64,000 nt of DNA, taken from IMG/VR virus record IMGVR_UViG_3300021256_000067. One strand, 5' to 3'. The notes under the pieces are model-generated. The model ran no database searches, was not told the DNA's origin, and was given only the letters and a program-made list of their open reading frames with translations. Position 1 is the first letter of the stretch. Each line of letters opens with the position of its first letter. The translations under genes were made by a program, and so were the position numbers. This DNA is from an uncultured virus (IMG/VR IMGVR_UViG_3300021256_000067). Its lineage: Duplodnaviria > Heunggongvirae > Uroviricota > Caudoviricetes. This document shows positions 2,294-48,572 of the stretch, piece by piece.

Positions 2294-3047
2294 ATGAAAG
2301 TTGCAGTTTTATTAAATACACATTTTTTAAACGATGAAGTCTGGAACAGGTTTAATCTTTTAAAAGAAGACGTACTTGATAATTTTGAATTTTTTATTAT
2401 CCAGAATAATGAATCTGTAAAAAATCCTTATTATAATATTTATAAAATTAATAATATTTCTGTTTTTGATTATTCTTCAGAAGCATTAAAAACCGAAGGA
2501 TATAAACTCTTACCATCATTAGGATTTAAATCTATAATGTGGAGCAATGGTTCATTAATGCCTATTAATTTATTTCAGAAACATTTTCCTGATTATGATT
2601 ATTACTGGTCTATTGAATATGATATAATATTTAATGGGAAATGGAAATATTTTTTTTGAGACTGTACATAAGAAAGATTTTGATTTTTGCACATCACATT
2701 TAGGTATGTCATTATCTGATTGGTGGTGGTATTCATATATAACTATTCCAGGGACAGTATCAAATACATTTATACAGGGATATATAAGAATGAGATCATT
2801 TAATACTATATGTGCTTTCTCAAACAGATTTTTAAAATATTTCGATAAAATATATAAAATGGGATTTTATGGAAACTGCGAGCAGACAATTCCTACAGCG
2901 GCTTTTAATTCTAAAGAGCATTTTAAGATTATAGATTTAGCCAGTGATTTAAATTTATGCAGTTGGGAAAGTAATAACTGGCAGGTCTATTATGAGAATA
3001 TTGATACGGAAAATTATATATATCATCCAGTTAAAATAAAACAATGA
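2294..3047 (+). pseudogene. DUF3405-like glycosyltransferase-related gene split by a frameshift in a T8 tract
   Basis: ORF 2294-2659 carries YDYYWSIEYDIIFNGKW and ORF 2634-3047 ends in YHPVK. Removing one T at 2650-2657 fuses them in frame (KWKYFFETVHKK). Confidence 0.6.
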
Positions 3048-5794
3048 TTATAAGTAAAGAACAACGAGACTGTATTTTACCTAATGGAGAAATAGGAAAA
3101 GAATTAATTATATCTTATGTCAATAAACAAGGTAAAATTCAGTTTCTTCAATATAAAATTCCACAAGAACAGATGTTTCAATGGGAGTATTGTACAAAAA
3201 GAACAATGCTTCAGGCTGATCCTATATTTAAATCTTGGGATAATAAACCAGTAAAGAAGAAAAAATGCAAGAAACTGAATGAATTCAGGTTAAATGAACT
3301 CCTATCAAGTTTTGGCGATGCGATTTCTCCATTATTTGATAGTACAGTTCCGGAGACATGGTTTTGTGATATCGAGACACAGATTTCTGAAGAAGGTTTT
3401 ACCGAGCCAGAATCCGCAAGGATGCCTATTAATACAATAGCTTTGACAAAATTTCCTGAAACTATTGTATGGGGACGTAAACCTTTATCTGAAGCCGAGC
3501 AGATTTCCATTCAGAAAAAGTTGGATACATATGCGCCTGATAAAATAAAAGGATATAAATTTACATATAAGTATTTCGCCAATGAGGCGGATATGATTAT
3601 AGATTTCCTTAAATTTATTAAGGATATCCCAGCACTTACAGGATGGAATTTCGTAGGATATGACTGGCTTTATATTATTAACAGATGTAAATTATTAAGT
3701 ATAGATTATAAATTCATTTCTCCTACCGGGGCATTTATGCAATGGAAACTGAATAATAAATCAGGAAATATTAATTGTCCTGTTCCAATGCATAAAGTAA
3801 TTTATGATTATATGCTTATCATGAAAAGATGGGAATATTCGCTTAAACCATATGAAAGCTGGAAACTTGATTGGGTTGCGGAAAAGGCATTAGGTGTAAA
3901 AAAAGTAGAGCATCCTGATTTTTTAACATTTTATAATGACCATTATGAAGATTATGTTTTTTATAATGCTGTTGATACAATTCTTGTAGAATTAATAGAT
4001 AAAATGATTCATATGGCAGATGTGATGTTTTCACTGGCTGCCGAGTTAAAAATCGAGATTAAAGATACATTATCTACTATTACACCTGTTCATACGGCTA
4101 TTACTAATTTCATTTATAAACAGAATAAAGTGTTTCCTGTAATCGATAAAGGAAATTCTGAGAGAGGTGATTATGAAGGTGCATTTGTATGGCCTTCACA
4201 ACCAGGTGTTTATAAGTATGTATGTGGAGTTGATGCTCAATCTATGTATCCAGGAATTATTAGACAATTCCAAATCAGTCCTGAGAATTTCTTGGGAATG
4301 GCTTCAAAAGGATATATCAGAAAACCTGATGAAATTGTCACAAAGTCAGGAGCCATATTTAAAAAAGATAAAAATGCCGTACTTCCGGCTATCTGTAAAT
4401 TTTATTTCTTGGAACGTGTAGCGGCTAAAGGATGTAAGAAAACAGCGGCAAAGCAATATAAGGATTTTCTCCATATATATGAGAAAAGAGAAAAAGGAAA
4501 AGCTCCAAAGACTTATAAGAATTCTGAAAAGAATTATTCTCAGATAGATCCATTAACATGTTCTATGGAAGAACTATGGAATGAAACAGAAAGATTATGT
4601 CAGCTTATGAATTATTATGAAAATAAACAGTTGGCATTTAAGATTTTCATTAATTCGATATATGGTGCCTGCGGTAATCAGTATATGAGGTTATTCTTAT
4701 TGGAAGCTGCAGAAGCGATTACTCTACAAGGACAGGATTTGAACCATTATACAGAGAATTGTATTAATCATTATCTGACATATGAATTCCAGAAAGATAC
4801 AGAATTACATAAGAAATTAGGAATCGAGACAGAAAAAGCCCAGCAGTTTAATTTGAATTGCGGACGATTGACAAAAACCGCGGTAGATTTAAAAAATTGC
4901 CATTGGCTGGATCCTAAAATCGGAGCGACATCTATTGTATATGGAGATACAGATTCTGTTTATACTGAGCTTGGACGTTTAATTAATTTCTTTAATATCC
5001 CAGATGATCAAGCATGTCAATGGATACTTATATTATGGAATGATGGTATTAATAAATATCTTCAACAGAAATTTCAAGAGTATTCAGACAAATATAACTG
5101 TGATGAAAATCTGCAGGTATGGGAGCTTGAAAAGATTATCCGAACAGCATTAATATATGCTAAAAAACATAATGCACTTGAAGTCGGTTGGGATGATTCA
5201 GGAATTTTTTATGGACCTATGGAGAAAATATCATATACAGGGCTTGAAGTTGTACAAGGATCTACTCCTATATATGCGAAGAAGTGTCAAAAAGAGATGA
5301 TTGAATATGTTTTAGAACATTACAGTCATTCATCTCAGCGTCCAGAATATTCTGATCTTATAATGATGTTGAAGAAATATAAGGCCCAGATGCCGTTGCA
5401 AGATCCAGATGATATATGTAAATCAATGGGTATAAGTGATTATAATAAATGGATTCTGGAAGATAAGAATACTGTGACGACAAGGTTGCATACTCCTTTT
5501 CATGTTAAAGCCGCGGCTGTGGCGAATCATCTTCTATATAAAAATAAGAAGTATATGACTAAGTATAATTTTATTAAATCTGGTGATAAAGTTAAATTCT
5601 ATTACACGACAGACAAGAATTTTGACGCTTTCGGGTTCCAGCCAGGTGAATTTCCTGTTGAATTCGCGCCTAAAATCGATTATGAACAGCAATTTGATAA
5701 ATTGATATTAACTCCTTTGAATTCATTGATAGGAAAAGTATTGGGATATAATGAATTAAACGTAACATTATGTTATTCAGAAAGCCTTTGGTAA
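3044..5794 (+). CDS. Family B DNA polymerase with 3'-5' exonuclease
   Basis: ExoI DIET, ExoII GWNFVGYD, ExoIII YNAVD; motif A DAQSMYP, motif B KIFINSIYG, motif C YGDTDS. Confidence 0.95.
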   Translation: MIISKEQRDCILPNGEIGKELIISYVNKQGKIQFLQYKIPQEQMFQWEYCTKRTMLQADPIFKSWDNKPVKKKKCKKLNEFRLNELLSSFGDAISPLFDSTVPETWFCDIETQISEEGFTEPESARMPINTIALTKFPETIVWGRKPLSEAEQISIQKKLDTYAPDKIKGYKFTYKYFANEADMIIDFLKFIKDIPALTGWNFVGYDWLYIINRCKLLSIDYKFISPTGAFMQWKLNNKSGNINCPVPMHKVIYDYMLIMKRWEYSLKPYESWKLDWVAEKALGVKKVEHPDFLTFYNDHYEDYVFYNAVDTILVELIDKMIHMADVMFSLAAELKIEIKDTLSTITPVHTAITNFIYKQNKVFPVIDKGNSERGDYEGAFVWPSQPGVYKYVCGVDAQSMYPGIIRQFQISPENFLGMASKGYIRKPDEIVTKSGAIFKKDKNAVLPAICKFYFLERVAAKGCKKTAAKQYKDFLHIYEKREKGKAPKTYKNSEKNYSQIDPLTCSMEELWNETERLCQLMNYYENKQLAFKIFINSIYGACGNQYMRLFLLEAAEAITLQGQDLNHYTENCINHYLTYEFQKDTELHKKLGIETEKAQQFNLNCGRLTKTAVDLKNCHWLDPKIGATSIVYGDTDSVYTELGRLINFFNIPDDQACQWILILWNDGINKYLQQKFQEYSDKYNCDENLQVWELEKIIRTALIYAKKHNALEVGWDDSGIFYGPMEKISYTGLEVVQGSTPIYAKKCQKEMIEYVLEHYSHSSQRPEYSDLIMMLKKYKAQMPLQDPDDICKSMGISDYNKWILEDKNTVTTRLHTPFHVKAAAVANHLLYKNKKYMTKYNFIKSGDKVKFYYTTDKNFDAFGFQPGEFPVEFAPKIDYEQQFDKLILTPLNSLIGKVLGYNELNVTLCYSESLW

Positions 5795-5944: not shown

Positions 5945-6640
5945 ATGGAAAAAAGAAATTTAAAATACTTCTGTTTTACTGGTGGATGCTTTTCCGGTAA
6001 AACTACTACAATGAATCTGATTAAAGAAAGATTTGAGAATATACACGGGATTAACTGTATGATTCTCAGTGAGCCTATTCGTGATTACAAAGGAACTATA
6101 GATATATCAGAATTCCGTAAAGATGTGCGTCAATATCTTCAGATGCAGATAGATACATGTGAGATGCGTACCAAGCGTGAATTAGAGGTTTTAGAAAAGC
6201 ATAAAAATGAAAAAGTCTGTGTGCTACAAGATAGAGGTGTAGCCGATTGTATTTTTTACAGCCGTCATTATATCAACAGAAATACTTTACCTGATGATCT
6301 GATAGATTCTTATGATGATCTGTTATTTTATCTTGATAATTTCGGAGAAGACAATTCATATAATTATGTTTATGATTATGTTTTAGAATTCAAGCCATTA
6401 GAGATAAAAGCAGAGACAGATGATCAGAAAAGCTTCAGACCTAAAGATATAGATGAAATCAAATATACAGAATATAAAGAAATCCATAATTGGAATGAAT
6501 GGTTCTGTTCACCGGATGCTGAACATAAGAATCCGTTGAAATATAAAATTATTGATTTAAACCAAATGAGTAAAGATGATTTAAACCAATATATCGATAA
6601 ATTAGCAGAAGAGATTAAAGAAAGTTGGAAAGATGAATAG
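5945..6640 (+). CDS. P-loop nucleotide kinase-like protein (AAA_28/NadR-type)
   Basis: N-terminal Walker A FTGGCFSGKTT and a QDRGVAD motif; overlaps the start of the TS-family gene. Confidence 0.7.
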   Translation: MEKRNLKYFCFTGGCFSGKTTTMNLIKERFENIHGINCMILSEPIRDYKGTIDISEFRKDVRQYLQMQIDTCEMRTKRELEVLEKHKNEKVCVLQDRGVADCIFYSRHYINRNTLPDDLIDSYDDLLFYLDNFGEDNSYNYVYDYVLEFKPLEIKAETDDQKSFRPKDIDEIKYTEYKEIHNWNEWFCSPDAEHKNPLKYKIIDLNQMSKDDLNQYIDKLAEEIKESWKDE

Positions 6641-7541
6641 TTTTGAGAGACAATATGCAGATTCTTTAAAAAGAGTTTTAAATGAAGGAGTAAAATGTCA
6701 TAACCGTACAGGAGTAGATGCTTATACTGTACAGCATCAGGATTTTATTATAGAGGATATAATGAATAATTTTCCGGGGATTAAAGGAAAGAAAGTATAT
6801 CCGTTAATGGCTTTAAAGGAAATTCTGTGGATGTGTCATGGCCGTACAGATGTCAAATGGCTTCAGGACAGGGGAGTTACTTATTGGGATGAATGGGCTC
6901 AAGAAGACGGGACAATTGGTAAAAGTTATGGTTATCAGTATAGAAATTTCAATGGTATTGACCAGTTACAGAAACTTATAAATGATATGATTGAATATCC
7001 TGAATCCAGGAGGTTGATTCTCAATCTTTGGAATGTGAATGAGTTGGATGAGATGGCATTGGCTCCTTGTGTATATGATTTTAATTTTAATTGTTTTAAT
7101 ACAGGAGATAATCATTATGATGTGAATTTACATGTACATGTAAGAAGTAATGACGCGTTCCTTGGAGTTCCTTATGATTTTATGTATGCCGCTTGGTTTC
7201 TTCATATTATATGTAAATATATTTCTATGTACTCACAATGGAGATTTAATCCCAAAAACATTTATTATACAGCCGATAATTACCATATATATGTAAATCA
7301 TATTGATCAGGTAAAAGAATATCTTAAAAACACGGAAGAAAATAAAGATGATATTCTAAGTATTCCTATTCAGTTATTGGGAGATTGCGTATTGGATACA
7401 AGAATAATGGGAAAAATGTCTTTTGACGAGTACCTTGACAAATATGAATTTGTAGCGACAAAAAATAAAATAGTCAAATTGGTTCCTGTAAAAGATTTGA
7501 CATTTGAATATGGACCTATAAAAGCACCTGTAGCAGTTTAA
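6633..7541 (+). CDS. Thymidylate synthase family enzyme with Asp at the specificity position (possible dCMP methyl/hydroxymethyltransferase)
   Basis: NRTG, WDEWA, YGYQYR, SRRLI, MALAPC (catalytic Cys), RSNDAFLGVPYD, HIYVNH. Confidence 0.85.
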   Translation: MNSFERQYADSLKRVLNEGVKCHNRTGVDAYTVQHQDFIIEDIMNNFPGIKGKKVYPLMALKEILWMCHGRTDVKWLQDRGVTYWDEWAQEDGTIGKSYGYQYRNFNGIDQLQKLINDMIEYPESRRLILNLWNVNELDEMALAPCVYDFNFNCFNTGDNHYDVNLHVHVRSNDAFLGVPYDFMYAAWFLHIICKYISMYSQWRFNPKNIYYTADNYHIYVNHIDQVKEYLKNTEENKDDILSIPIQLLGDCVLDTRIMGKMSFDEYLDKYEFVATKNKIVKLVPVKDLTFEYGPIKAPVAV

Positions 7542-8247: not shown

Positions 8248-10164
8248 ATGTATAATCCAAAAGATATATTAGATAACATAGAGAAATGGACTGAGAAGTG
8301 GTTAGGCTCTGACTTTCAATTCAGAAAGTATCAGAAAGAAACTGTTCTCAGGACATTAATTAATATACTTAACAAAAGGTCCAGGAATACGATTATCAAT
8401 GCCCCGACGGGATCTGGAAAATCCATAACAGCATTAATAGTCGCCGGGGTGGCTGCGGAATATTATCAGAAAAGCTCATATATCCTCGTCAGTGACACTT
8501 ATCTGCATGAACAGTATGAGAATGCTATTAATAAATTTAATCTTCCGTATGGCAATATAAAAGGCCGCGAGAATAATTATATATGTGATAAAAACCAAAG
8601 GGATGTCATATGTTCAGAATGTGTTCTTAATAATGTAAGCCTGAAAAAACTTATGGATTCCGCCTGGGTATCAAAACATAAAGAATACCATTGCGCCAGA
8701 ACATGTAAATGGATTCTTGATAGGAAAAAGGCGATTGAATCATCTGTCTCGGTTTTGACATACCAGTTCTGGATGTATCAGATTCATCAAGTAGAAGAAT
8801 CTCTGTTTACAGAAAGGGATATAATCATTTATGATGAGTGTCACAAAATCCCGGATATTGTACAGTCCTTATGTACATTAAGGTTCAATGAATTCGACAT
8901 TGATAAGTTAAAGGCTATACAGTCTCATTCATTGTTAAATGATTATACAGATTCTCAATTGAATCTGGTAAAGAAAATAAAACAGGTATTTGACAATGAA
9001 TTAGTTTTAAGTGATTTATCTGCTCCTAAATTCGCCAAATCAATCAAAGATATTTTTGCAGGATTAAAAAAATCAGAAGATAAAGAAAAACAATATTCTT
9101 TATTAAAGGAGTTATATACAGATTTCATTAAACCCTGTATGGCTGTAAGGATGATTTATTCTTATAACATGGAGCAGGAATTGGCGAAAGGAGAACATCT
9201 CACCAAAAAGGATTATGAGATACTGGAGAAATTCCAGTGGTTTGATAATTTTACCATAAAATTTCAGTGGCTGTTTGATGTTATAGACAATTCCAATATA
9301 GGGATATCGACATTAATAAAAGAAATACAGACATTGGAATATAAGACAAATTCTTTATTTGAAGATACAGATCATTATACAGAATTGGCTTTCTGCTCGA
9401 TTGATGAATCATATATAATATGGGATAAGCTTTTAAAGCATTCAGGATCTCATAATGTATTGATGTCCGCTACTGTCGGAGATATAAATATATACACGCG
9501 TAATTTAGGTTTAAATTTATATTATCCTGAAAATGAAGAACTTATATATGATTATATGCAGATAAAATCAATATTTGACTTTTCTAAATCAAATATAAAT
9601 ATTTTACCGTTCTACAGGATGAGTTATAAAGAGAAAGATACATCTCTTCCTAAATTAGCAAGGTATGTAGAAATGATATGCAATGCCCATAAAGGACAGC
9701 ATGGTATTCTGCATACTGGATCATATGAGATAACCAGAAAATTATTAAGTATGATTCAAGACAATAATGTTAAGGAAAGATTAAAATATTATAACACTAC
9801 ATCAGAAAAGAAAGATCTGATACGTGAAATAAATTTTAAAAATGATACAGTTATAACCGGACCGTCAATGATTGAAGGAGTTGATCTTCCAGATGATTTA
9901 TGCAGGTTTATGATAATACTGAAAGTCCCGTATCCTTCACTGGGCTCAGAATATGTAAAAGCCAAAATGAAATATATTGACGGATGGTATCACGCGCAAA
10001 CAGTAAACCAGTTAATACAATGCATAGGTCGGGGTGTAAGAAATGAAAAAGACTGGTGTATTACATATATTTTAGATGGCTGTTTTATGGGAGATATTTT
10101 AAAAGGTGTAACTGAACAAGATAATAACATTAAAAATAGATTAAGAATTTTTTCGCATGAGTGA
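8248..10164 (+). CDS. SF2 DinG/XPD-like helicase
   Basis: APTGSGKS, Cys cluster, DECH, SAT, EGVDLP, KVPYP, QCIGRGVR. Confidence 0.88.
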   Translation: MYNPKDILDNIEKWTEKWLGSDFQFRKYQKETVLRTLINILNKRSRNTIINAPTGSGKSITALIVAGVAAEYYQKSSYILVSDTYLHEQYENAINKFNLPYGNIKGRENNYICDKNQRDVICSECVLNNVSLKKLMDSAWVSKHKEYHCARTCKWILDRKKAIESSVSVLTYQFWMYQIHQVEESLFTERDIIIYDECHKIPDIVQSLCTLRFNEFDIDKLKAIQSHSLLNDYTDSQLNLVKKIKQVFDNELVLSDLSAPKFAKSIKDIFAGLKKSEDKEKQYSLLKELYTDFIKPCMAVRMIYSYNMEQELAKGEHLTKKDYEILEKFQWFDNFTIKFQWLFDVIDNSNIGISTLIKEIQTLEYKTNSLFEDTDHYTELAFCSIDESYIIWDKLLKHSGSHNVLMSATVGDINIYTRNLGLNLYYPENEELIYDYMQIKSIFDFSKSNINILPFYRMSYKEKDTSLPKLARYVEMICNAHKGQHGILHTGSYEITRKLLSMIQDNNVKERLKYYNTTSEKKDLIREINFKNDTVITGPSMIEGVDLPDDLCRFMIILKVPYPSLGSEYVKAKMKYIDGWYHAQTVNQLIQCIGRGVRNEKDWCITYILDGCFMGDILKGVTEQDNNIKNRLRIFSHE

Positions 10165-11236
10165 AAGGAAAAAACTGTTGATTCTTATTATGTCTTGTAA
10201 TCTTGAAAATTATAAGCATAAAGAACAGATTATAAGAGATACATGGTTTAAGGATATAGGGAAATATCCAGATATAGTAGATGCTTATTTTTTTACGTCA
10301 AGCGCCATTGATAATCGTAAAATAGATGAAGAGAATAAAATAATATATGTTCCTGTACAGGATTTCAGAGACAGGACATTTAATAAATTTATGGAAACTC
10401 TTCTTTTATTAGAAAGAGAAAATATAGAATATGATTATATTCTTAGATTGAATATTTCCACATATCCGAATCTCAAACTTATTTGTGAGTATATACAGAC
10501 ATTAGAACAGGATGAAAATTTATATTGCGGAAGTTTATGTAATTCTCCATGGTATAGTCCATTAGAATTACCGTTCGCACAAGGTGAATTTTTTATATTC
10601 ACTAAACCTATTTTAAAAATTCTTAAAGATTATTATTTTTATAATAAGGTAAATTTTGATAATATAAACAATTTAGGATCATATACTAACAAATATTTTA
10701 ATGATGATGGATGGGTTTCTCATATAATGCATAGATATTTCACATATAATAAATCTAATATGGATGATTATTTTAATGCATTGCATTCATTAGGTATTAT
10801 ACATGAATATGATACAATTTATAAGCATAAAGATTTATATAATACTGTATTATGTATTAATTATAAAACTTGCCCTTCTTTAAATCCTGAGCCTTTAATG
10901 ATGGACAGTAAAGACAAATATGATAAGGCGACAGAAATGAAAATTCATGATATACATAATGCTATAACTGAATTGAATAAAACGGATTATATAGATAAAA
11001 GCATTAAAATAATTAATGAGAATAAAGATACGCAATGCTATACTACATCTATGATTCATAGTAATTACAGGATGTTTGATAATTATATGATTTCAAAAGA
11101 AGAATGTATCGAGAATTTTAAAATAGCTAATACTCGAGAATCTATATACAAATATCCTAATTATGATAATTATATTCGTACAAATAAAATATATGAAGAA
11201 TTAAAAAAATCCAATCAAATTCAAGAAATTAAATAA
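10157..11236 (+). CDS. Glycosyltransferase-like protein (GT31/galactosyltransferase-like N-terminus)
   Basis: LLILIMSC...IIRDTW, EYDYILR and NDDGWV patterns; translationally coupled to the helicase. Confidence 0.5.
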   Translation: MSERKKLLILIMSCNLENYKHKEQIIRDTWFKDIGKYPDIVDAYFFTSSAIDNRKIDEENKIIYVPVQDFRDRTFNKFMETLLLLERENIEYDYILRLNISTYPNLKLICEYIQTLEQDENLYCGSLCNSPWYSPLELPFAQGEFFIFTKPILKILKDYYFYNKVNFDNINNLGSYTNKYFNDDGWVSHIMHRYFTYNKSNMDDYFNALHSLGIIHEYDTIYKHKDLYNTVLCINYKTCPSLNPEPLMMDSKDKYDKATEMKIHDIHNAITELNKTDYIDKSIKIINENKDTQCYTTSMIHSNYRMFDNYMISKEECIENFKIANTRESIYKYPNYDNYIRTNKIYEELKKSNQIQEIK

Positions 11237-13387: not shown

Positions 13388-14005
13388 ATGAAATTTATTG
13401 TATTGGCACATAATGATAATAATAAGTTAATTAGATGTATATCATCTATTTGCACTAATAAAAAATATAAAATAGAGATAGATATTCTTTATAATGGATT
13501 AGAAGTCCAAAGGATTAAAAATACTGTTTTCACATTAAAGAAATATAATCCGGATATTAAATTACAATTTAAGAAATTTAATATTCATAAACGGGATATC
13601 TATAAATCTGTTGATATTTTAATGTTAAGGAAATGGATTAAACAGATTAATAATGAATTTGTCGTAATCTGTAATGAAGACTGTATATTTAAATCTGATT
13701 ATATAGAGAGGTTTTTTGAGGATATAGATTTACATTATAATAATGAGACAGATGATCTTAATGCGTTTATTTACGGAAATCCTGCATTGGTGGATATAAA
13801 CGGAAATGGTAAATGTATATATAGAAAAGAAATCCTGGAGAAAATACCGAACAAGCAGTGGAGAAATTTAAAAGACATATATCAGTTGTATCAATGGTAT
13901 TTCTCAGAGTACTGTCAGTCAAAAATATTTTTTGAGAATATAATAGAAGCTGAAACAAATAAAAAATTTCATGTTATAAAATATGATAATGTAATTATTG
14001 ATTAA
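13388..14005 (+). CDS. Divergent GT2-like glycosyltransferase fold protein
   Basis: MKFIVLAHN...LIRCISSI...EFVVICNEDC resembles a GT-A N-terminus with a degenerate DxD. Confidence 0.4.
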   Translation: MKFIVLAHNDNNKLIRCISSICTNKKYKIEIDILYNGLEVQRIKNTVFTLKKYNPDIKLQFKKFNIHKRDIYKSVDILMLRKWIKQINNEFVVICNEDCIFKSDYIERFFEDIDLHYNNETDDLNAFIYGNPALVDINGNGKCIYRKEILEKIPNKQWRNLKDIYQLYQWYFSEYCQSKIFFENIIEAETNKKFHVIKYDNVIID

Positions 14006-44731: not shown

Positions 44732-46588
44732 ATGGCCAATACATTTCAAATTCAACGTTTAAAAAAGACGTCTAATAAACTGAAAACACAAGGGTTAGAT
44801 ATTCTTGGTGACAGTTTAAATAATCTTTCATTTATATATAATACAGGTGAGAATTCATTTGGATCATATATACATGCAGGTGATGGTGTGTATATCGGCA
44901 AGAATCCTGTAGTTAATAATACAAAGGCTTGGTATACTACAGATTTGGAAAAATCTTATGAATATAACTACTTTAATTACACTACTGCCGGAATGCCTGG
45001 TGTACAACCTCCTCGCAATGCGACTATTACAGATACTGGTGTTCTTCATTTGGTTATGCCATCTGAAAGTACAGGATCTATATATACCCGTTTGAGTTTC
45101 CGTTCATTGGCAGACGCGTCTACTACTTTCGGTGATGTCAATAAAATTATAAAATGGGGCTTGACAGATGAGGGTGGAACTGAACCTCCTACAGAAATCC
45201 ATGATTGGATGGAAGAGCATCCTGGAGATGTTACAATGGATGCATCATTCACTATGTATTATACAGAAGATGGTTCAATTATAAATAAAAACGTTTATGT
45301 AGCATATACTAATGACGCGTCTATAGGTTCTGAAATACTTTCAACAGAAACAACAAATGACGCGGATGAAGATGCATCATTAAGCTCAAGAATCAGAAAT
45401 TCAATAGTAAATGTAAATTCATTGAAAAGTCAACAAATCGGATTTGCGAATGTCTGGATTAAGGCCATGACCAATGCATATACGGGTGTTATTTCTAATA
45501 TTTCATGGGCAAGAAATGATCCTAGTTGGGGAGGCGGTGCCGGAACTACATGGTTATATGGAGCTCCAAAAAGAGATCAAGAAGAAATATTATTTGGTGA
45601 TGGACCAGGTGCAGCTCAAAATGTAAAGCCATCAATTAAACCCAGTGCACAATCATGGGGAGAGGTCACTGATGCTTCAATGTCAAAAATTAAAGATGAA
45701 TATATTGCCGTCGATGAATTGGATGCATCATATGTAGAAGATCACGGAGATATAACAGAAGTTGTATATCAGGATTTATTCAATAAAGATGTTTCAACAA
45801 TGACATCAACACATATTGAATATACCGGCCCTACAATGAATATTGACCAACGTATATGGAGATCTGATACAGAATGGTCACAAGAATCAGAACCAGTTGT
45901 TAATGTTGCAGATGCTGTAGTCGTTGAAGAATATACTCCTACAAATGTTTGGGATGAAATTAATTACAGATTTAAAATCATTAATGAAAACTTCCGTATA
46001 TTAGCAAATGATATTGATCAATCTAATATCATGATTATGGAAGATACTGTAGGTACTCTTATCCCGGCTATTGTCACTACAACCAATAAACAGATTTCAG
46101 TGCTTGATATAAGTGTTGCTTCTCTTGATTCAAGTGTTGCAACTATGGGAGATTTAGTAACAGGTCATGATGCAAGCATCGTAAGCCAAGATACAAGAAT
46201 CAATACACATGATTCAAGTATTGCAGTTCTTGATCATAGTTTTATAGCACTTGATGCAAGTGTTCAAAGAGTTGATATATCAATCGGCTGGAATGATATA
46301 TCTAATCAAGTATTATTCACAGGCGGATTAAATCCAGAAAGAGCACATAATACAGTTATAAGTTACCTGCAAGCTTATGCCGATAATGCTGCGTCAACGG
46401 CGGCTACAGGTGTAGATATGTCTAATTATGTTGATACTAGTACATTTACCGCAACATTAAATAATTATGTCGATACAAGTACATTAAATACTACATTGGA
46501 GAATTATGTTGACGCCAGCACATTAGAAGAAACATTGGATAATTATTTTAATACACAATTTACTATAATAGATTTAGATGAAGAATAA
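44732..46588 (+). CDS. Putative virion structural protein, D-x-S rich
   Basis: Late box 44696-44703; heptad-like D-x-S C-terminal region and NYVDTST repeats. Confidence 0.6.
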   Translation: MANTFQIQRLKKTSNKLKTQGLDILGDSLNNLSFIYNTGENSFGSYIHAGDGVYIGKNPVVNNTKAWYTTDLEKSYEYNYFNYTTAGMPGVQPPRNATITDTGVLHLVMPSESTGSIYTRLSFRSLADASTTFGDVNKIIKWGLTDEGGTEPPTEIHDWMEEHPGDVTMDASFTMYYTEDGSIINKNVYVAYTNDASIGSEILSTETTNDADEDASLSSRIRNSIVNVNSLKSQQIGFANVWIKAMTNAYTGVISNISWARNDPSWGGGAGTTWLYGAPKRDQEEILFGDGPGAAQNVKPSIKPSAQSWGEVTDASMSKIKDEYIAVDELDASYVEDHGDITEVVYQDLFNKDVSTMTSTHIEYTGPTMNIDQRIWRSDTEWSQESEPVVNVADAVVVEEYTPTNVWDEINYRFKIINENFRILANDIDQSNIMIMEDTVGTLIPAIVTTTNKQISVLDISVASLDSSVATMGDLVTGHDASIVSQDTRINTHDSSIAVLDHSFIALDASVQRVDISIGWNDISNQVLFTGGLNPERAHNTVISYLQAYADNAASTAATGVDMSNYVDTSTFTATLNNYVDTSTLNTTLENYVDASTLEETLDNYFNTQFTIIDLDEE

Positions 46589-48071: not shown

Positions 48072-48572
48072 ATGTACAATAATAAAAAAATTACATTAAT
48101 AGCTTGTGTCGATAAAGATTACGCAATCGGTTACAAAAATAACTTATTATTCAGAATTCCAGATGATTTAAAGAGATTCAAGAAATTGACAACCGGAAAT
48201 ACCGTAATAATGGGCAGGAATACTTATGAATCCATAGGTAAACCATTACCTGACAGACAAAATATTATATTAACTCACCAGACAGATTTAAAAGTTCCTA
48301 ATGAAGTTTATATAGCTAATAATATAGAAGAAGCTGTTAATCTCGCGGAACATAATATTTTTGTGATAGGTGGCGAATCAATATATCGTCAGTTTTTTGA
48401 ATATGCTGACGAATTACTGCTTACAGAAGTTGACGGTAAAGTTCCCGACGCCGATGCATTTTTTCCTGAATTTAATAACAATAAAAAGAAAAAATATTGG
48501 GATTTAATAAAATCAGAAAAAATAACTGAATGGTGTACAATAAGTTATAATACATATATTCGTAATAAATAA
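48072..48572 (+). CDS. folA: Dihydrofolate reductase
   Basis: AIG..N.L, DLKRFK, VIMGRNTYESI, PLPDRQNI, VIGGESIY, DAFFP. Confidence 0.95.
   Translation: MYNNKKITLIACVDKDYAIGYKNNLLFRIPDDLKRFKKLTTGNTVIMGRNTYESIGKPLPDRQNIILTHQTDLKVPNEVYIANNIEEAVNLAEHNIFVIGGESIYRQFFEYADELLLTEVDGKVPDADAFFPEFNNNKKKKYWDLIKSEKITEWCTISYNTYIRNK

Follow-up and report, generated by a model that had tools for sequence, protein, structure and literature searches.

A ThyA-fold enzyme with aspartate at the nucleotide specificity position, a probable dCMP C5-methylase coupled to a P-loop kinase in a large ruminant-gut phage

The DNA analysed here (the window, 64,000 nucleotides) is the first half of a linear, 126-kb virus record, the completeness of which was estimated at 28%. 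The window encodes a T4-like terminase, prohead protease, gp32 and helicase, and long matching pieces come from public runs on sheep and goat gut samples. Along the strand, a family B DNA polymerase gene is followed by a P-loop kinase gene and a thymidylate synthase (TS) gene, and the dihydrofolate reductase (DHFR) gene reported by the initial annotation is indeed present, 40 kb away (Table 1). The kinase gene overlaps the start of the TS gene by 8 nt. We found no close cultured phage, as the best matches were 28–38% identical and the DNA matches only short. Scanning viral contigs with either the TS or the polymerase as the sole query retrieved no relative and did not recover the missing part of the genome; a recorded contig of 320,940 bp has the same TS sequence.

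Table 1. Features of the window, and of the loci and genomes compared with it.
Feature	Position	Strand	Basis or source
Family B DNA polymerase, directly upstream of the kinase-TS pair	3044..5794	+	PF00136/PF03104
P-loop NMP-kinase-fold protein (AAA_28), predicted kinase for C5-modified dCMP	5945..6640	+	PF13521, E 1.7e-8
ThyA-fold enzyme, predicted 5-methyl-dCMP synthase, 302 aa	6633..7541	+	PF00303, E 7.6e-60
Leu143 (7059-7061), catalytic Cys146 (7068-7070), Val147 (7071-7073)	7059..7073	+	alignment to E. coli ThyA
GAT codon, Asp at the Asn177 specificity position	7176..7178	+	alignment to E. coli ThyA
Dihydrofolate reductase	48072..48572	+	PF00186, E 4e-48
DUF3405-like ORF, split over two overlapping frames	2294-3047
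Fringe/Galactosyl_T-like ORF	10157-11236		atlas
Weakly GT2-like ORF	13388-14005		E 0.004
Xp12 dCMP methylase module: TS, with dCMP deaminase and DHFR	45326-46195 (TS)		MT664984
Divergent Asn169/Asp177 TS-fold gene after the kinase	L335:5618-6427
Divergent Asn169/Asp177 TS-fold gene after the kinase	L337:5615-6388
Divergent Asn169/Asp177 TS-fold gene after the kinase	L338:5608-6426
Kinase fused to a uracil-DNA-glycosylase-superfamily domain	L334:4995-6284
D12-class adenine methylase, near-identical strain	L187:427-1389
Divergent dUTPase-fold protein, G002	L169:3545-4186
Divergent dUTPase-fold protein, G010	L288:12196-12798
Protein of the 510-590 aa family upstream of TS	L005:7987-9624
Asn-type TS within a split DNA ligase gene, G001	L011:9313-12066

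The TS gene product contains the segments ...MALAPCV... and ...RSNDAFLGVPYD... and was modelled by AlphaFold with a pLDDT of 93. The top Foldseek matches are all ThyA (TM 0.77/0.88), and no hydroxymethylase appears among the PDB matches listed, whether by sequence or by fold. The protein passes the TIGR03284 cut-off and fails the seven other NCBIfam TS cut-offs. The closest solved structures are those of E. coli ThyA (28% identity), with which the folate- and phosphate-binding residues are conserved. As the initial annotation had claimed, aspartate occupies the specificity position: D182 aligns with E. coli ThyA Asn177 on the PDB chains, and the histidine following the catalytic cysteine is replaced by V147. 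The protein thus differs from E. coli ThyA by N177D and H147V, as well as by Q165V, F176Y and a longer C-terminal region. In E. coli numbering, which we use throughout, the other active-site residues are E58, W80, W83, Y94, L143, C146, R166, D169, H207 and Y209, and the C-terminus reads KAPVAV. An engineered L. casei TS double mutant, His199/Asn229Asp, is reportedly a better dCMP methylase.

A sequencing or assembly error at the GAT codon was excluded, because among the 15 of 23 cluster members listed, all 13 that cover the site keep the PYD motif. Independent contigs from three public runs (X4, X5 and X2) also span the codon, and no change to AAT or any other codon is found there among the differences listed. 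Similarly, PCV is kept in 12/12 listed members covering the cysteine. Contigs from RNA libraries lie over the gene (X4, 6467-7515; X16 and X17, partially), but such contigs cannot show transcription.

Published residue rules allow a prediction of the product. In the available part of PMC13326640, N177D makes the enzyme prefer dCMP, and a hydrophobic residue 143 shuts out water and leads to a methyl product, whereas an acidic residue 143 leads to hydroxymethyl and D169N to hydroxy. The accessible text of PMC6400193 describes the C-terminal tail, together with W83 and L143, as sealing the site for hydride transfer and as marking methylating enzymes, and gp42 as having no such tail. Positions 177 and 147 are the top separators of modified and unmodified contigs in the excerpted analysis of PMC8670742. 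In the portion of bioRxiv 2024.12.05.627091 consulted, 5mdC was made by five of the seven Asp177 homologues tested, with none from the other two, and dT is proposed to arise by deamination.

The protein has features expected of an Xp12-type 5-methyl-dCMP synthase: the TS fold with Cys146, Glu58, Arg166 and Asp169, Asp177 and a hydrophobic residue at 143. T4 gp42 shares Asp177, the cysteine nucleophile and the Glu58 equivalent with it, but combines an acidic residue 143 with the lack of a C-terminal tail, whereas the window's TS has Leu143 and the tail. The D169N replacement of the RB69/DLP3-type 5-hydroxy-dCMP synthases is absent, as Asp is found in 64/64 members of the clade described below, and the canonical ThyA pair of Asn177 and His147 is absent as well. 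Given that Leu143, Asp169, Trp80/Trp83 and the ThyA tail are all kept, the residue rules predict a 5-methyl-dCMP synthase rather than a T4-type hydroxymethylase. The dCMP specificity on a ThyA-like scaffold put forward by the initial annotation is supported by these rules, and of the two products it had allowed, 5-methyl-dCMP is the one favoured by Leu143, Trp83, Asp169 and the tail, while 5-hydroxymethyl-dCMP appears less fitting. We therefore favour, with a probability of about 0.7, the prediction that ORF 6633-7541 is a folate-dependent dCMP C5-methylase, and that 5-methyl-dCMP is phosphorylated by the kinase and replaces cytosine in the phage DNA.

In the proposed pathway, Asp177 would accept the 4-amino group of dCMP, and methylene transfer would end by hydride transfer, yielding the methyl product and dihydrofolate, which would be recycled by DHFR. 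The overlapping kinase would phosphorylate 5-methyl-dCMP, and 5mdCTP would then be built into the DNA, blocking most type II restriction enzymes. The dTTP may be taken from the host, or a deaminase like that of the Asp-type relatives described below may form it from 5mdC nucleotides. Counting against this pathway, no deaminase, dCTPase-like gene or PRA-PH was found in the 28% fragment with Pfam (141 ORFs, 71 + 70) and family searches. The same searches of the fragment revealed no second TS, ThyX, dUTPase, C5 methylase or carbamoyltransferase; the second thyA or thyX and the dCTPase were those that the initial annotation had proposed to look for. Since the fragment represents 28% of the genome, these absences tell little about the missing 72%.

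The kinase shows weak thymidylate-kinase matches (PDB, E 0.006; PHROG, E 1e-5) and belongs to a family of ~270 relatives at 50% clustering. We surveyed the neighbourhoods of the kinase family in 37 viral loci, corresponding to 19 lineages at 60% identity, within a distance of 4 kb. A carbamoyltransferase was present in 35/37 loci and 18/19 lineages, and a TS-fold gene in 33/37 loci and 18/19 lineages, and the neighbourhoods were confirmed by Pfam on six loci. The combination of carbamoyltransferase and TS is a published signature of modified contigs. The sole lineage without carbamoyltransferase is G018 (complete, 52 kb), in which a single ThyA-like Asp177 gene lies 0.8 kb downstream of the kinase, as in the window. 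The location of the family beside carbamoyltransferase and TS-fold genes supports the kinase-TS coupling, giving the initial annotation's view of the gene pair independent support. Since the base-selecting asparagine of the TS is replaced by aspartate and the overlapping kinase is from a family that usually adjoins cytosine-modifying genes, the DNA of the window phage likely carries 5-methylcytosine, as is already known for phage Xp12. The kinase is not a constant partner of the TS clade, being found at 1/78 loci (the same species) and in 1/17 records, and the relatives of the window's TS carry a T4-gp1-type kinase elsewhere in the genome.

Several members of the kinase family have an unusual architecture. 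Among the long members tested, 16/17 are fusions with a uracil-DNA-glycosylase-superfamily domain (among them P0202, P0206, P0217 and the locus in Table 1), and in one family member (P0192) the fusion partner is a TS-fold domain. In the carbamoyltransferase-kinase cassettes, at about 15 loci and the three named in Table 1, the gene after the kinase encodes a divergent TS-fold protein with Asn169 and Asp177, the published signature of 5-hydroxy-dCMP, and in many cases another TS, resembling gp42, comes next.

Phage Xp12 resembles the window in having a ThyA homologue with Asp177 and without His147, and a DHFR in the genome. The two enzymes are only 25.5% identical over 235 aa, and the window's TS keeps the W80/W83 segment and the AV-type tail, both of which are missing from the Xp12 enzyme. 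Unlike Xp12, the window phage is large and AT-rich and has T4-like genes and an AAA_28 kinase partner, and a deaminase was not found in the fragment; the deaminases of Xp12 and of the window's relatives are 29% identical over 96 aa. Given the 25.5% identity and its closer relation to canonical ThyA, the window's TS is probably an independent lineage of an already described enzyme class. The metavirome Asp177 homologues described by Yan et al. (bioRxiv 2024.12.05.627091) and Yang et al. (eLife 2021, PMC8670742) agree with the window's TS in residues 177 and 147 and in the predicted product. They are linked to 5mC-selective deaminases, whereas none lies within 3 kb of the window's TS, and the relatives of the latter, unlike the metavirome loci, have a deaminase-DHH fusion 6-18 kb from the TS.

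The top homologues of the window's TS form a clade of 64 proteins, 49 with Asp and 15 with Asn at position 177. The phylogeny suggested by the initial annotation set this clade apart from canonical ThyA with an SH-aLRT of 100. All 49 Asp-type members keep E58, W80, W83, Y94, C146 and D169 and have a hydrophobic residue at 143. Quick trees need five to six Asp/Asn changes, of which at least two to three are forced by well-supported (starred) branches, and the switches include one close sister pair; a single Asp clade was rejected by the AU test (p 8e-16). With ThyA as the outgroup, one gain of Asp followed by several reversals would be the simplest reading, the root within the clade being poorly resolved. 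Bacterial genome matches to the clade profile are all Asn-type. In two related contigs of 161 and 396 kb (L010 and L012), the TS reads through only if TAG is translated as Gln (table 15), and it has Asp177 and Gln147. The Asn-type TS of G001 is flanked on either side by one half of an NAD-dependent DNA ligase gene. The loss of His147, on which the initial annotation had also relied, is real but not diagnostic on its own, because all 15 Asn-type members lack this residue too.

The alternation bears on whether the enzyme could be an ordinary or dual-specificity dUMP methylase that tolerates Asp, the two residues being interchangeable in the clade. Such an enzyme would be in line with the well-supported switches, the loss of His147 in both types, the TIGR03284 match and the presence of a sole TS in every record searched. 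However, ThyA mutants and natural enzymes alike change specificity with N177D, according to the available parts of PMC8670742 and bioRxiv 2024.12.05.627091. Moreover, residue 147 covaries with residue 177, as Gln or Glu is found in 10/15 Asn-type but 2/49 Asp-type members, and the two types differ in both gene content and composition. We regard a dUMP methylase as improbable.

The gene content of the relatives was compared in 17 records, each of which has one TS and no ThyX. The Asp-type G002 (circular, 161 kb) also has DHFR, a dNMP kinase and a deaminase-DHH fusion, and its gene set equals that of Xp12 (one TS, DHFR, dNMP kinase and dCMP deaminase). The Asn-type G001 (complete, 223 kb) lacks a deaminase; its DHH gene adjoins a canonical dUTPase, and a C5 methylase is encoded at a distance of 2 kb from the TS. 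DHFR is not diagnostic, because G001 has one as well; it was rejected as an Asp/Asn discriminator together with the T4-gp1-type dNMP kinase, since both types carry them, and the C5 methylase was too sparse to serve (1/5 Asn versus 0/12 Asp records, plus the Asn locus L013). Deaminases are present in the Asp-type G002, G004, G009, G010 and G016 and at loci L188, L189, L213 and L233; those resembling the G002 protein were found solely with Asp-type TS, and deaminases of other kinds are present in the Asn-type outsiders G013 and G014. Three complete Asp-type phages, G005, G007 and G018, lack a deaminase altogether, so that phage genes do not account for their dT. PRA-PH was not found in the five records searched. 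A divergent dUTPase-fold protein, found in G002 and G010 (47% identical to each other) but not in the fragment, is a candidate dCTPase. At L005 and 25 other loci, a protein of 510-590 aa (35-54% identity) is encoded just upstream of the TS. The 546-aa copy has no Pfam, PHROG or PDB fold match, with uncharacterised viral proteins as its only matches, and the protein is absent from the window's fragment and G001.

Silent-site composition was compared at 59 loci, reduced to 36 by 90% dereplication, from which four rows keeping His147 were dropped. Fourfold-site GC was 0.045-0.194 in the 23 Asp loci and 0.246-0.525 in 8/9 Asn loci, the ninth being at 0.09. The nominal p of this contrast is 1e-4, but the Asn rows represent about four lineages, and with kinship correction by independent pairs (three starred pairs, median p 0.5) it is not significant. 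The low silent-site GC of the Asp loci fits a 5mC mutational load, and host differences could explain it too.

Restriction sites were classed as cut or blocked on C5-modified DNA from the Xp12 digestion table in the available part of PMC7653180, with T4gt taken instead wherever Xp12 lacked the site or gave an inconclusive digest. GATC and GATATC are nearly gone from most Asp-type genomes and CCWGG from some, and all of these sites would still be cut. CTAG is generally rare. With CTAG set aside post hoc, a blocked site is strongly depleted in 1/16 Asp versus 6/7 Asn sets (Fisher p 5e-4), a contrast in favour of the predicted methylase that vanishes when CTAG is included (11/16 and 6/7); both sets contain TS from outside the core clade, inside which the contrast is weak, and low GC lowers the power in the Asp set. 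Mean depletion did not differ significantly between the types at either blocked (p 0.09) or cut sites (p 0.53). The window's genome strongly avoids none of 54 sites (0/15 cut, 0/39 blocked), much like Xp12 (0/13 cut, 2/51 blocked), and shows mild depletion of GATC, CTAG and the 5mC-blocked GGCC (0.71) and CCGG (0.82). G014 (L319-L328) avoids palindromes to an extreme degree, with 19/52 tested C-containing sites having zero copies in 191 kb.

The mild depletion of GGCC and CCGG would suit a phage in which 5-methyl-dCMP is a mere detour to dTMP via a deaminase, the DNA keeping ordinary cytosine. The lack of a second TS-family gene or ThyX in the 17 records, the deaminases accompanying many Asp-type relatives and the thymidylate kinases that are the best named matches of the kinase point in the same direction. 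Against such a detour, the kinase family resides in cytosine-hypermodification cassettes, and the same gene set in Xp12 yields both dT and full 5mC (bioRxiv 2024.12.05.627091, in the portion available). The route would also lead nowhere in the complete Asp-type phages without deaminase, and we consider it slightly less probable still than a dUMP methylase.

Three glycosyltransferase-like ORFs lie amid the replication genes of the window (Table 1), and a D12-class adenine methylase is encoded in the near-identical strain L187, ~2 kb past the record's left end. The Fringe/galactosyltransferase-like and weakly GT2-like ORFs could belong to a phage whose product is 5-hydroxymethyl-dCMP, subsequently carbamoylated or glycosylated by these or by genes in the missing 72%. 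The nearly constant carbamoyltransferase beside the kinase family and the strong avoidance of 0/54 sites, unlike most Asp-type relatives, are compatible with such a product. However, L143, W83 and the sealing tail are kept, no carbamoyltransferase was found in G000, G002, G004 or G010, and the glycosyltransferase-like ORFs match the same-species locus L187 only, or nothing; the adenine methylase of L187 can explain the weak GATC avoidance. A 5-hydroxymethyl product is as unlikely, in our estimation, as the detour.

Returning to the predicted dCMP C5-methylase, the enzyme class is already known (Xp12, MetaGPA), and what the present analysis adds, suggestively, is the kinase family and the Asp/Asn switches, which recur and are matched by genome composition. 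Our literature search found nothing joining rumen jumbo phages, TS and cytosine modification. If true, the prediction would extend whole-genome 5-methylcytosine to large ruminant-gut phages and put forward a candidate kinase for modified dCMP. The DNA of such phages would withstand most type II restriction enzymes but not the methylation-dependent ones, and virome work relying on bisulfite or restriction would give anomalous results for it. The close Asp/Asn pairs of the clade would offer a test of 5mC as a driver of AT content, and of what else changes when specificity flips.

Taken jointly, the observations allow a more tentative reading, which we hold to be rather doubtful: a family of gut jumbo phages may repeatedly have toggled one enzyme between Asp177, for 5mC, and Asn177, for thymidylate (often with Gln147), with their genomes recording the switches. 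The 5mC lineages would decay to extremely AT-rich silent sites and no longer avoid restriction sites that 5mC blocks, whereas Asn revertants would regain GC and acquire a dUTPase and a C5 DNA methylase in place of the deaminase. The AAA_28 partner would, on the same reading, mark out a family of kinases specialised in C5-modified dCMP. If true, these phages would have run, in nature, an experiment on what full methylation costs a genome in mutations.
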